Below are positions 3,001 through 9,000 of a DNA stretch of 64,000 nucleotides, piece after piece. The stretch's first letter is position 1. The number at the start of each line of letters is the position of its first letter. Made by a program: the position numbers. This stretch comes from Alphaproteobacteria bacterium (lineage in GTDB: Bacteria > Pseudomonadota > Alphaproteobacteria > UBA2966 > CAIVPW01), in the NCBI GenBank assembly GCA_016869235.1, contig VGER01000001.1, positions 54,596 to 118,595 of the forward strand. The letters are read 5' to 3'.

Positions 3001-6000
3001 TGCTCTGCACGCCGAAGCGCTGCGCGCCCTCGAGGCGCGTCTGGATGATCGCGTTCGTCAGGTTGCGATCGTTCAGGCACGCCTGGAACTGCTCCTGGGT
3101 GACGCCGCCGATCTGGGCGATCTGCGTCAGGCGTCCCACCGGATCGCTGGCAACGGCCCACGCCGCCTGCTGCTTGAACATCGCTTCGATGAACGGGAAG
3201 AAGCGCTGCGGGCCGGAGCAGCGCGCCAGGATCGCGCCGTACACCGCCGGCTGGTTGAGCGGATACTCGCGGAAGATCAGGCGCGCCTTGCCGGTGTCGA
3301 TGTACTCGGTCTTGAGCCGCGGCAGCGTGACGTTGTGGAACTCGGCGCAGTGCGGGCATGACATCGATGCGTATTCGATGATGGTGACGGGCGCGCGGGG
3401 ATCGCCCAGGCTCAAGTCCGGCGTCGCCACTGCGGGCGCGGCCGGCGCGGGCGCCTGCTGCTGGGCGGCGCCCGGAACGGTGAACGCCAGCGCGGCCACA
3501 AAAGCAGCCGCGAAAAAACCAGCCCGGGGCAATGCTTTAGATTGGGTCCGCATAAGGCTCAAACCACTAGATATGGTGCCAGTGTAGCGAGTCACCCGGG
3601 CGATAGGGAGTCGATTCCTGCCGCCGCGGATGGATCACATGCCATTGCCGGGCTTGGGTTTTTGGGCCGCGGCGACCCGTCGGCCCAGGGCCTTGAGCTT
3701 CTCGCGCAGCCGCTCGTCGTCAAGGCGGGCGACAGCCGCGTCGATGGCGTCGGTTTCGGCCGCGCTCAAGGATCGCGGCGCCGCCTTCTTGGGGCGGTTG
3801 GGCTTGGCCGGCAGCGGCGCCTGGTGCAGCGCGAGCCTGGCAACGGCCGGATAGCCGAAGAAGCCGTTGATGCGCTCGAGCACGATCGGGGCAAGGTGCT
3901 GCAGCTCCAGCGCCAGCACGCCGCTCGCGCGCACATGCAGCGTCGCGCCGCCCGCCTGTCCGTCGCGCGGGAAGACGAGGCGCTCGGGCGCGCTCTGCGC
4001 CGCGAGCTCCGCGCCCACGACCTCGCTCCACCGGCCGACGATGGCGGCCTGCGCGAAGCCGCGCCGGCGCAGCGCCGGCGTCGCCGCCTTGGGCACCACG
4101 GTGCCCAGCGCATGGATTCCGCCGGGGCGGATCGGCTGCGACATGAGGCGCGCAGGATGCCGCGATTCCGCGCGCACGTCATGTGTCTCGGCAAGCCCAT
4201 GGTAGGGTTGCGCATGGACCTCGCCGCGGCGCTGCTCGCCTGGTACGACCGCCACGCGCGGAGATTGCCTTGGCGGGCTCGTCCGGGGGCGGCGCGCGAT
4301 CCGTATCGCGTCTGGCTGTCGGAGATCATGCTGCAGCAGACGCGCGTCGCTGCGGTCATCCCGTACTTCGAGAAGTTCGTCGCGCGCTGGCCCACCGTGC
4401 ACGACCTAGCCCGGGCGCGGCAGGCAGAGGTCCTCGCGGCATGGGCCGGTCTTGGTTACTACGCCCGCGCCCGCAACCTACACCGCTGCGCGCAAACCGT
4501 GAGCGAGACGCGCGGCGGCGCGTTTCCCGACGACGAGACGGGCCTTGCCGAGCTGCCGGGCATCGGCGCCTACACAGCGGCGGCGATTGCCGCCATTGCC
4601 TTCGACCGCCGCACCGTGGCGGTGGACGGCAACGTCGAGCGCGTACTAGCGCGCCTCCATGGCGTGCGCGAGCCGCTGCCCAAGAGCAAGCCGACGCTGC
4701 GGGCGCTCGCCGCCGACCTCGTCCCGGAATTGCGTGCCGGCGACTACGCCCAGGCGGTGATGGACCTCGGCGCCACCATCTGCACGCCTGCCAAGCCGGC
4801 GTGCGGGTTATGCCCATGGAACACGGCGTGCGCCGCCCATCGCGATGGCGAGGCCGAGGACCTGCCCGCCCGCGCCGCCAAGAAGGAGCGGCCGACCCGT
4901 CATGGGGTAGCCTTCTGGCTGGAGCGCGCCGGCGATCGTGCCGTGCTGCTGCGCCGCCGCCCGCAGGAAGGGCTGCTCGGCGGCATGGTCGAGGTGCCCG
5001 GCACGCCGTGGCGTGACGAGCCGTGGTCAACCGACGAGGCGCTGGAACATGCGCCGGTGCATGGCGCCTGGCGGCCGCTGCGCGGCGACGTGCGCCACAC
5101 GTTCACCCACTTCCACCTCACGTTGTCCGTGATTGCCGCGACGGCCGACGCGGACAAGGCGGATGGTCAGTGGTGGTGCGACCGCCGCGACCTCGACGAC
5201 GCCGGGCTGCCGACCCTGATGCGCAAGGTGGCCAAGCACGCGCTCAAGCTGCTGACGCCCCCGGCCACTCGACAGCCCTAACAGACCTCATGCGAGGATC
5301 CTAGGTACGGATCCGCATCTTGGGCCCTGCATTGCGGATCGGCCCGGCGTATCTTTTGCGCGCCATCCCCTCGGGTGGCCGGGGCGGGCCTCCAAACAAG
5401 TGAGGCCCCAGCGCGTGAACGCTGAGGCCTCGTTGGTCACACGGCAGGCACTGCCTGCCGCGCACGGAGATCTTAACGCATGGATACCGACGTCGACTAC
5501 TTGGTGGAGCAGTTGAAGAAGGCTGGCTTTGAGTCCCCGGACGCGGAAGCGGCCAGAAAGTTGGCAATGGTGGTGGCGAACCCGATTCCCATGAACGCGG
5601 GACAAGCTTTGAGAAGCGGTGTCCGCACATTCAGTGCGTCGATCCCGTTCAGCGTCCTCTATGGTCGGTTTGCGGTGCCGTATCGCGACACGGTCCGCAA
5701 GCGCGGATATCAGCGCAAGCCACAGGACTATCGCGTCAATCAGCTCGTTTCCGCGCTCCGTCAGAACCGCGTTGACCTGCCGACCGCGGTGCTCATGAAC
5801 ATCCTCGGTCGGGACGAAAGCGACCGGTTGGTTCGTGATACCGGAGAAGGACGCGCCTTCCTTCACGTACCTCCATTGCCTTCGGACGACAATTCCGGCG
5901 CCACGTTCTTCGTAGTTGATGGATAACACCGCATCTTGGCCCTACAGAAGGTCTACCAAGATGCGCCCGAGAAGTGGGCCAACTTCCGAGTGCAGGTGGT

Positions 6001-9000
6001 GCTGATGGTGGGTGCATCCGAGAAGGAGGAGATGGAGCAGTTCTACATCGTCAACAGCACCGCGAAGTCGGTCAGAACTGACCTCGCACTCGACCTCTTG
6101 AAGCAGCGCGCGGACAACGATGGTCGGGTTCTCCAGCAAGTCGACGAGCGAGGCGAGCGCTGGAAGATCGTCGGGCAATCGCTGGCTGAGACCCTGAACG
6201 AGCACTCTGCTGTCTGGAAGAACCGCATCCGCTTCCCGAACGCGCCGAAGGAGGAAACCGTCATTCCATCCGCGAGCTTCGTGAACTCGCTGCGTGGTCT
6301 GATTAAGTCGCCGTTCTTCGGTGGGCTGACCACGGAACAGCAGACCAAGTTGCTGGACGCGTACTGACTTAGCATCCGCGAGGCGTGCCGGCCGCCCTTT
6401 GACTCTCCGGACGACTACACGCTCCAAAAGGGTATCGGCGTGACGGCGATGCATGAACTCCTTGTCTCCGTCATCGAGCACGTGCGGTCGGCTGGCGACA
6501 GCGTGTTTGACAAGGACGTCTACCGCGACCTCATGGAAAAGGTTCTCAATAACCTCGAGGCGGACAACGCCGTTGGCGAGAGCGTGAGCGGGTCTGATTT
6601 CTGGCAGACAGCCTCCCACGGAGGCGCAGCGGGCAGCTTCAGTAGCAGCGCCGGCCGTAGGGTCTTGGTCGCGAAGTTGCGCGCGCATCTGCCGGAGATG
6701 CAGGTCGAATAATGGACGTCGGCGGGCGCTACCAGCTCCCGCCGACCACCCAAGCCGGATTCGGAGGCATCACCATGCGCATTCGGGAAAGTGAACTTGT
6801 CGAGCCTGCTCGGTTGGCGATTCGTGATGCTGGCGGCGAAATATCGACCGCTGCCCTCATCGAGCGACTCGCCCAGGAAATGGGCCCCGTTGGGGAAAAT
6901 GCGGCAATCCTTGCCGGGCGCCTCGATACCAAATTCTCCCAAAAGGTACGCAATCTTAAGAGTCACAAGACGCTTGAGCGCACGGGTCGCGCAATAGCGA
7001 CGGGGGGAGGCTTCCGCCTGCTCTAACCAGCGGCACCTTGCGGCGAGTCATTACGCATCTCGGCTCTAACTCGCGCCCGGAGATTTTCGATGGGCGCGAG
7101 TCTTCCCGTCTCTTGCACCTTGTATTGCCAAAATGCCCAGCCGTTGCAGGCGCTGAGCCCCGCCACCGCAGCGCCAACGCTATGAATCGAGCCCGTCACG
7201 TTATTCGAAATGATGGAACCGTCCGCCCGGACTTTTGCACGGGCCATCCCACGCAGGTCATAGAGGAGCGCCCCAGGAGGTAGGAGCCCGCGTTCTACCA
7301 GTTGGCCGAACGGCACGCGCGGCTCGTCGCGCTTGCCGCGCGTCACTTCCAGCGCCGCCGCGTCGCCTCCGACGACGTTGGCGATGCGCTCGCGCGCCAG
7401 ACGCGCATAGACCGGCTCGCGCTCGATGCCGATCCACCTGCGTCCGAGCCGCTTGGCAACCGCGCCGGTGGTGCCGGACCCGAAGAACGGGTCGAGCACG
7501 ACGTCGCCGACATTGGATGAAGACAGCAGCACCCGGTGCAGCAGCGCTTCCGGCTTCTGGGTGGCGTGGGCTTTCTTGCCGTCGGTCTTGAGACGCTCGT
7601 TGCCGCCGCACACCGGCAGCAACCAGTCGGAGCGCATCTGCAGCTCGTCGTTGAGCGCCTTCATGGCGTGGTGGTTGAACGTGTGCGCCGGCGCGTCGCG
7701 GTCGCGCGCACACCACAGCAGCGTCTCGTGCGCGTTGGTGAAGCGGCGGCCGCGGAAGTTCGGCATCGGGTTGGTCTTGCGCCAGATGACGTCGTTGAGC
7801 ACCCAGTAGCCGAGGTCCTGCAGCATGGTGCCGACGCGGAAGATGTTGTGGTAGCTGCCGATCACCCACAGCGTGCCGGAAGGCTTCAGGACACGGCGCG
7901 CGGCGGCGAGCCAGGCGCGGGTGAAGCGGTCATAGGTTTCGAAGTCGGCGAAGCGGTCCCACTCGTCGTCCACCGCGTCGACGACCGAGTCGTTGGGCCG
8001 GCGCAGCTCGCCTTCGAGCTGCAGGTTGTAGGGCGGGTCAGCGAAGACGAGGTCGATTGACTCGGGCGGCAGCGCGCCCATGCGCGCGACGCAATCGCCT
8101 TCGAGCACCGTGCCGAAGTACGAAGCGATGTCCGCCGCAGCGGCAGCCGGGCTCTTGCGCGCCATGGCCCGCACAATGAGTCCCGGGCGATTCTCCGTCA
8201 AGAATCAAGGAGTTAACCATGGTCCCAACTAGATGTTGGGTGTGCGGGACTCGCCTGCTACCGCACTTATTCGGCGGCCGCGGTCGTGAACGGCAGTTCC
8301 GGCTGCAGCGTGCCCTTGATGGCCATGCGCACGGCGGCGAACGTGCGGCGGTGGTGCGCGGTGACGCCGAGTTTCGCGATCGCCTGGCGATGGTCGAGGG
8401 TCGAATAGCCGCGGTTATGTTCCCATCCGTAACCGGGATAGGAGTCGGCGAGCGCATCCATGATGCGGTCGCGCACCACCTTGGCGACGATCGACGCCGC
8501 GGCGATGGAGCGCGAAATGGCATCGCCGTCGACGACGGCACGCGCGGGGCAGGGCAGATCGTCCGGCAGCCGGTTACCGTCGATGAGGGCGAAGCGCGGC
8601 GCGTAGGGCATCGCCGCCACGGCGCGGCGCATCGCCAGCAGCGACGCCTCGAGGATGTTGATGCGATCGATCTCGTGCACGCTGGCGGCGCCGACGCCCA
8701 CCACCGCGCATTGCTCGATGCGCGCGAAGAGCTTCGCGCGCGCTTCGGCGGTCAACGCCTTGCTGTCGTCGATGCCACGCGGCGCGCCGCGCAACGGCAG
8801 GATGACGGCGGCCGCGACGACCGGGCCGGCCAGCGGCCCGCGCCCTGCTTCATCGATGCCGGCGACAAGGCAACCCGCCTCGCGCTCCAGGGCCAGACTT
8901 GGAATGGTCCCCTCCCGCCGCCTATCTAGCACCGGCGGCGGCCGCGGCGTTAGCCGATCCTAGGGCCGCGGGCGCGGCCGCTGCGCCGTCGCGCGCTTGA

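Follow-up and report, generated by a model that had tools for sequence, protein, structure and literature searches.

Organization of the mutY/ccrM Junction

The DNA analyzed here, which we call the window, is a stretch of 64,000 nucleotides (nt) on contig VGER01000001.1 of an uncultured freshwater alphaproteobacterium, and all coordinates are positions within it. Between its convergent genes mutY and ccrM lies an islet of 1741 nt (5282-7022), in which a gene for a DGQHR-domain protein is interrupted by two nonsense codons and followed by a small winged-helix gene. We interpret this as a small horizontally acquired islet at the mutY/ccrM junction, composed of a dead stand-alone DGQHR gene and an intact small winged-helix gene, and put the probability of this reading at about 0.85. 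The features of the region are listed below (aa, amino acids; GC3, GC content at third codon positions; ORF, open reading frame).

4157..5281, plus strand: mutY, the native left flank (Pfam HhH-GPD and NUDIX_4; gene call on the identical contig L013)
5282..5479, plus strand: islet leader of 198 nt, with two GC-rich hairpins and GGAG 10 nt before the ATG
5480..6712, plus strand: DGQHR-domain pseudogene of 410 codons, with zero frameshifts and two nonsense codons
5924..5926, plus strand: TAA, the first of the two nonsense codons, in place of the invariant Gln (CAA) of D-G-Q-H-R
6365..6367, plus strand: second nonsense codon, TGA, replacing the invariant Trp (TGG) in AYW
6775..7026, plus strand: intact small winged-helix gene of 83 aa, related to Mrr_N; the longest ORF starts at 6712
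7023..7300, minus strand: 3' end of ccrM, its last ~90 codons, encoding the RAMA domain, with islet-like GC3 (~0.64)
7023..8165, minus strand: ccrM, a GANTC-type N6-adenine methyltransferase (Pfam N6_N4_Mtase 2.9e-66 and RAMA 7.9e-17; gene table of L013)

The GC3 of mutY remained at ~0.9 as far as its TAA stop. On the right, the islet is bounded by ccrM, with rnhB next, and the stop codon of the small gene overlaps that of the convergent ccrM.

Assignment to the DGQHR Family

The ORF listing gave three consecutive frames, 5480-5926 (148 aa), 5936-6367 (143 aa), and 6440-6712 (90 aa), and all of them belong to one common reading frame. Read through from 5480 to 6712, this frame contains just two in-frame stops, a TAA in FFVVDG*HRILAL and a TGA in LLDAY*LSIRE. 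The original prediction, made from the sequence alone, had joined the three ORFs into a DGQHR protein of about 410 codons, and this was correct. For the hidden Markov model (HMM) comparisons the read-through protein was used, with Q and W restored at the two stops. It scored 98.1 bits against TIGR03187, the profile of DGQHR proteins (cutoff 58.85), with residues 47-329 matching profile positions 8-273 of 276. The signature of the DGQHR family comprises a QR pair, the DGQHR pentapeptide, and FxxxN (PMC4619093). These elements are present as GYQR at residues 76-79 (in the context GYQRKPQ), VDG*HR at residues 146-151, with a stop in place of the Gln, and FYIVN at residues 188-192, all of them in columns that alignment A1 shows as invariant. 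The N-terminal part has the ParB/sulfiredoxin (Srx) fold, while the C-terminal domain is alpha-helical and matched neither a nuclease nor a solved structure; likewise, the family profile found zero matches among PDB sequences.

A search of 5.8 billion proteins found more than 1000 relatives. The best 120 were nearly all of intact length (370-410 aa), showed 45-59% identity, and typically covered ~91% of the query. The restored protein aligned end to end with 25 and with 120 homologues, and its length differed from theirs only in the N-terminal and loop regions. It differs from TIGR03187 proteins in general in that the window copy is a pseudogene and belongs to a solitary subfamily with a distinctive conserved C-terminus of its own, GGAAGSxSSSAGxRVL...LPE. 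The gene belongs to an uncharacterised subfamily of solitary DGQHR proteins of 370-410 aa.

Named systems resembled it less. The protein had been called DndB-like, after the regulator of the dnd phosphorothioation operon, and it does share the DGQHR motif and a borderline match to the Pfam DndB family (clan PF14072; 29.2 bits vs 29.1), but it failed the DndB equivalog TIGR03233 by a wide margin (15.2 bits vs a cutoff of 328), and the label was dropped. The best named match was DpdB of the 7-deazaguanine Dpd system, which ranked first in PADLOC (E = 7e-17) and has the same two-domain layout, with a helical domain behind a ParB-like NTPase domain (PMC10164549). Even so, the DpdB equivalog NF041060 gave only 54.6 bits, over residues 75-339, far under its cutoff of 300. 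The type IV restriction enzymes GmrSD/DUF262, which combine a DGQQR N-terminal domain with an HNH/DUF1524 nuclease, are different again: the GmrSD_N profile failed (15.8 bits vs 33.2), and the C-terminal domain here is helical.

Two Nonsense Codons in the Pseudogene

The alignment column of the first stop contains Q in 120 of 120 homologues, and that of the second contains W in all 120. The mutations were therefore CAA to TAA and TGG to TGA, both of them G:C to A:T transitions. This bears out the proposals that a C-to-T transition had placed a TAA at the motif Gln and that a TGA at 6365-6367 formed the second interruption. The first stop truncates the protein after residue 148, within the nucleoside triphosphate (NTP)-binding motif, and the second stands at codon 296, so that a functional DGQHR protein cannot be made from this gene. 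That both stops fell on invariant residues was considered as a possibly significant observation and rejected as unremarkable, because Gln, Trp, and CGA codons are the only ones that a transition can turn into a stop, and most Trp positions of this family are invariant.

One may ask whether the gene still works in pieces, with the 148-aa N-terminal fragment or the helical C-terminal parts serving, for instance, as a regulator or dominant-negative form. The three ORFs are still open and the leader contains a Shine-Dalgarno-like GGAG, but the frame is broken within the NTP-binding motif, at the core of the ParB/Srx fold. Moreover, TTG or GTG is the start codon of fragments 2 and 3, neither of which has a recognisable ribosome-binding site, and none of the family members has a natural split of this kind. 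We regard such a function as highly improbable.

The stops are not sequencing errors, and the pseudogene is fixed. Since each stop is a single-base change in a gene that otherwise looks functional, an artefact of sequencing or assembly concealing a gene intact in cells is an obvious suspicion. However, contigs 100% identical to the window, with the same stops, were found in the JGI assemblies 3300020193, 3300020197, 3300020198, and 3300020200, in ENA assembly ERZ27247963, and in the Logan assemblies SRR7990525, SRR7990526, and SRR7985589, and the 148-aa fragment and the downstream 104-aa ORF recurred exactly on them. A slightly different strain on ERR14789950 (L014), with 7 differences in 3348 nt (0.2%), still carries both stops. 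Altogether, the first stop was covered in 9 metagenome contigs and both stops in 8. The stops must be real, because they recur in assemblies from differing pipelines (JGI, ENA, and Logan) and different runs, including a diverged strain from another project, and an artefact is extremely improbable.

The same recurrence has also to be weighed for another possibility, namely that the TAA and TGA are passed by programmed read-through or recoding and the full-length protein is expressed. In its favor, the rest of the frame is intact with all invariant residues present, both stops persist in two slightly diverged strains, and a hairpin with a perfect 10-bp stem follows the TAA at a distance of 3 nt (-16.9 kcal/mol, z = -2.26). 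On the other hand, the equivalent 61-nt segment folds as stably as this hairpin or more so in 40% of 70 intact homologues, and the TGA is without a downstream structure (z = +1.1). All three stop codons end conserved neighboring genes (dciA TGA, mutY TAA, rnhB TAA, and ccrM TAG), and a TAA also closes this same gene at the family-conserved C-terminus ...LPEMQVE. Stops shared by many genomes had been named as the observation that would speak for recoding; among ~170 fetched loci, no other member had a stop at either position. Moreover, we know of no bacterial mechanism for decoding UAA as Gln. Recoding is therefore very improbable.

Evidence that the gene has drifted since its inactivation was slight. 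Besides the stops, the window copy departs from the family at 4 columns that are at least 95% conserved (G53A, L158V, F173V, and G361A), compared with a median of 1 such departure in intact members, of which just 6 of 120 had 4 or more; the signal of relaxed constraint is weak, though consistent. The strains differ at four sites of the pseudogene, and at three of them (R109, G298, and A346) the variant strain has the family consensus residue and the window has not, which fits drift in the lineage of the window; we do not lean on it. Several observations weigh against the interpretation of a decaying pseudogene. Apart from the two stops the gene is well kept, with zero indels and 54 of 54 columns invariant in alignment A1 retained, and the restored sequence scored 563 bits against the HMM of the 120 homologues, whose own scores ranged from 513 to 618. 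In addition, all the stop-bearing contigs represent one population, and the function of the solitary DGQHR subfamily is itself predicted by analogy. The strain differences are all non-synonymous also in mutY (2 of 2) and ccrM (3 of 3). For this reason the four pseudogene changes, likewise non-synonymous (4 of 4), do not by themselves indicate relaxed selection, and an estimate of the ratio of non-synonymous to synonymous substitution rates from the strain variants was rejected, the sites being too few as well. Given the good preservation, either the inactivation was recent or the evidence of drift is thin.

Solitary Homologues and the Question of a Lost System

The dnd and dpd clusters are the best-known homes of DGQHR proteins. 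The small downstream ORF, for its part, is related to Mrr_N, falls 12-17 residues short of its nearest homologues in length, and stops exactly at ccrM. On these grounds the islet could be what is left of a larger cluster for DNA modification or restriction, of the dnd, dpd, or Mrr type, whose partners and nuclease were deleted. We therefore compared the genomic settings of the intact homologues. The closest of them, at 45-59% identity, are solitary and occupy unrelated settings: L001 has its copy among insertion sequence elements, L002-L004 have it in the gap from pheS to rplT, L005 has it behind a ribonucleotide-reductase operon and adjoining a toxin-antitoxin pair, and in L186 it precedes a TauD-like gene. 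When all ORFs within 2.5 kb were clustered for 64 DGQHR-family loci, no conserved neighbor of the solitary family emerged. The biggest neighbor cluster, with 4 loci, was a small helix-turn-helix (HTH) protein with the motif GVNxGRIxE, unrelated to the small ORF of the window; relatives of the latter were present in 0 of 49 downstream regions of DGQHR homologues. No dpdA, dpdC, dndCDE, or TGT-like gene stands beside the intact homologues examined, and no dnd or dpd genes occur within ~10 kb of the islet, according to the gene table of the identical contig.

The family is thus solitary, and no larger dnd or restriction module has been shown to be lost. The original prediction had noted that dndCDE partners are missing here, which is so, and had read this as degradation of a larger module; since the intact homologues are solitary, the absence is the normal state of the family and not a loss, and for a DNA-modification or restriction-type module we saw no supporting evidence. 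Considering also the DpdB and DndB cutoffs, missed widely, and the small-ORF homologues, which are small throughout (see below), the remnant of a larger cluster is quite unlikely.

A small HTH ORF begins at or next to the stop of the DGQHR gene in a number of loci (L001 7173-7466, L002 7194-7376, L110, L119, L130, and L188 1885-2199), and the closest homologue (P0001) also has the GVNxGRIxE HTH ORF downstream. The GVNxGRIxE gene may be an optional partner of some DGQHR genes. A phage origin of the DGQHR gene was considered and rejected: IMG/VR held just 5 distant relatives at 22-28% identity, and PHROGs gave a weak ParB-like match.

The Small Winged-Helix Gene

The longest ORF downstream of the pseudogene, 6712-7026, has 104 aa. 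The likely gene is the 83-aa frame 6775-7026, because the homologues align only from residue 22 onward, the ATG at 6775 is preceded at 8 nt by a GGAGG, and the database call is one of 83 aa. The window protein had zero matches in Pfam (PF14338 included), NCBIfam, PADLOC, and PHROGs. Nevertheless, PF14338 (Mrr_N), the N-terminal winged helix of Mrr, was matched by 13 of 32 members of its family, with a best E value of 8.6e-9, so the label Mrr_N-like is right, but by transitive homology only. The window copy keeps the strongly conserved motif GRxDTKFSQKVRNLKSH and all 14 invariant residues of alignment A3. With its frame open and these residues intact, it may still be expressed.

It had been described as a small Mrr_N-like ORF that ends at ccrM and has been truncated from an Mrr restriction endonuclease. 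The relationship and the end at ccrM were as described, but the truncated Mrr was not: all 53 homologues are small (67-177 aa), and an Mrr catalytic domain is listed for none of them. Its closest relatives (GFRITxxGRxYL...) continue for 12-17 residues beyond the GFRLL* with which the window copy ends at the ccrM stop, while several family members end naturally at this same point. Any truncation is therefore minor, at most those 12-17 C-terminal residues.

Three homologue loci were checked, and none had the small gene beside a DGQHR gene (0 of 3); two were phage-like (P63C, RecT, and endolysin) and one lay among core biosynthetic genes. The small Mrr_N-like family may be borne by phages or prophages. 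In the phage-like contigs, with their RecT and endolysin genes, the homologues (L096 3376-3672; L097/L098 5001-5318) are divergent from a P63C-domain gene.

Insertion at the mutY/ccrM Junction

To place the islet, a MutY scan of species-representative genomes was made, which gave 80 loci (L016-L095), 42 of them with ccrM convergent to mutY and usually then rnhB. The host has no close relative in this sample; the best MutY match, at 73%, was to a metagenome-assembled genome with the label Rhizobium sp. Q54, and Rhodospirillales came next at 63-65%. In the 42 convergent loci, the distance from stop to stop was at most 26 nt in 14, 101-500 nt in 5, 501-1500 nt in 12, and more than 1500 nt in 11. 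Considering that the junction is tight in 14 of the 42 relatives, the 1741 nt found here are an insertion. A DGQHR or small-ORF homologue was present at the junction in 0 of 42 relatives.

The composition pointed in the same direction. The GC content of the islet was 0.610, compared with 0.718 on the left and 0.680 on the right, which placed it in the bottom 2.4% of stretches of this size across the 64 kb. Similarly, GC3 was 0.77 in the pseudogene and 0.60 in the small ORF vs 0.84-0.87 in mutY, ccrM, and rnhB. Both the lower GC relative to the flanking core genes and the horizontal insertion between mutY and ccrM had been proposed beforehand, and both agree with these results. Elsewhere in the 64 kb, GC like that of the islet (~0.60 in windows of 1741 nt) occurred in one stretch only, ~60200-62500.

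In other genomes the cargo at this junction, up to 4.9 kb, is lineage-specific and unrelated from one locus to the next. Among it are toxin-antitoxin genes of the HigB/HigA-like and VapC-like kinds, a fragment of a DUF772 transposase, and fimbrial genes; one membrane protein recurs in several marine (Rhodobacterales-type) loci. The mutY/ccrM junction looks like a recurrent landing site for small cargo in Alphaproteobacteria. Flanking direct or inverted repeats that could be scars of the insertion amounted to short, chance-level matches, and no believable tRNA integration site was found. ARAGORN reported a tRNA-Asp (anticodon ATC) at 3994-4072 on the minus strand; it lies inside the dciA ORF and is almost certainly a false positive.

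The unusual composition did not stop at the end of the islet. Over the last ~90 codons of ccrM, which encode the RAMA domain (~7023-7300, ~280 nt), GC3 falls from ~0.90 to ~0.64. The difference in GC3 between the N-terminal and C-terminal parts of ccrM was 0.255 here, vs -0.002 +/- 0.045 (maximum 0.115) in the 42 relatives. This compositional evidence suggests that the imported tract reaches into ccrM and that ccrM is a mosaic. Such a mosaic could have arisen by recombination with a donor that already carried the islet beside its own ccrM. When a donor of the RAMA end was searched for, the closest homologues had at most 62-65% identity, no better than the nearest relative L016, and no donor was found.

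Proposed History of the Islet and Its Meaning

Based on these distributions, we propose that an islet of ~1.7 kb, or possibly ~2.0 kb if the 3' end of ccrM came with it, was acquired at the convergent mutY/ccrM junction. Its first gene would have encoded a 410-aa DGQHR protein, in which the N-terminal ParB/Srx-fold domain is predicted to bind and hydrolyse NTP via the DGQHR loop. This chemistry is suggested by analogy: DpdB is an ATPase, the DGQQR motif is required for the NTPase activity of SspE, and the motif has been compared with the GxxRxxA CTP site of ParB (PMC10164549). The second gene would encode the 83-aa winged-helix protein related to Mrr_N, for which DNA binding is predicted. The change from CAA to TAA would then have broken the first gene in its NTP-binding motif, probably not long ago, and the change from TGG to TGA would have added a second block.

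The DGQHR gene is an ordinary, recently inactivated member of a known domain family and not a new system, and the object matters little in itself. Its interest is first of all that of an annotation trap, since a DndB-like gene need not imply a lost dnd cluster and an Mrr_N-like ORF need not be a truncated Mrr. It also draws attention to the solitary DGQHR proteins as a large uncharacterised subfamily at variable places in genomes, and it shows the mutY/ccrM junction of Alphaproteobacteria as a recurring site of small cargo, where the imported tract may here extend into ccrM. A bolder idea is that the more than 1000 solitary DGQHR proteins of ~400 aa form an unrecognised, widespread mobile single-gene module, sometimes joined by an HTH or winged-helix gene, and that they are ParB-like NTPases that act on DNA in defence or the control of foreign DNA; here such a module would have been imported by homologous recombination, with replacement of the RAMA end of ccrM in the same event, and then silenced by selection, in two independent hits, because its activity was costly. 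We offer this as a speculation that is probably wrong as a whole.

Leader of the Islet

The 198-nt leader is structured. One of its hairpins lies at ~5397-5435, and the other is a perfect 17-nt palindrome, GGCAGGCACTGCCTGCC, at 5443-5459, 21 nt upstream of the DGQHR start codon. An Rfam scan of 5000-7400, the leader included, returned zero families at threshold, a promoter scan returned zero promoter-like sites, and a terminator scan gave one minus-strand terminator-like hairpin, roughly the rate in shuffled sequence. The segment 5395-5480 folds at -39.8 kcal/mol (z = -3.06), and its hairpins could act as a terminator or an operator.

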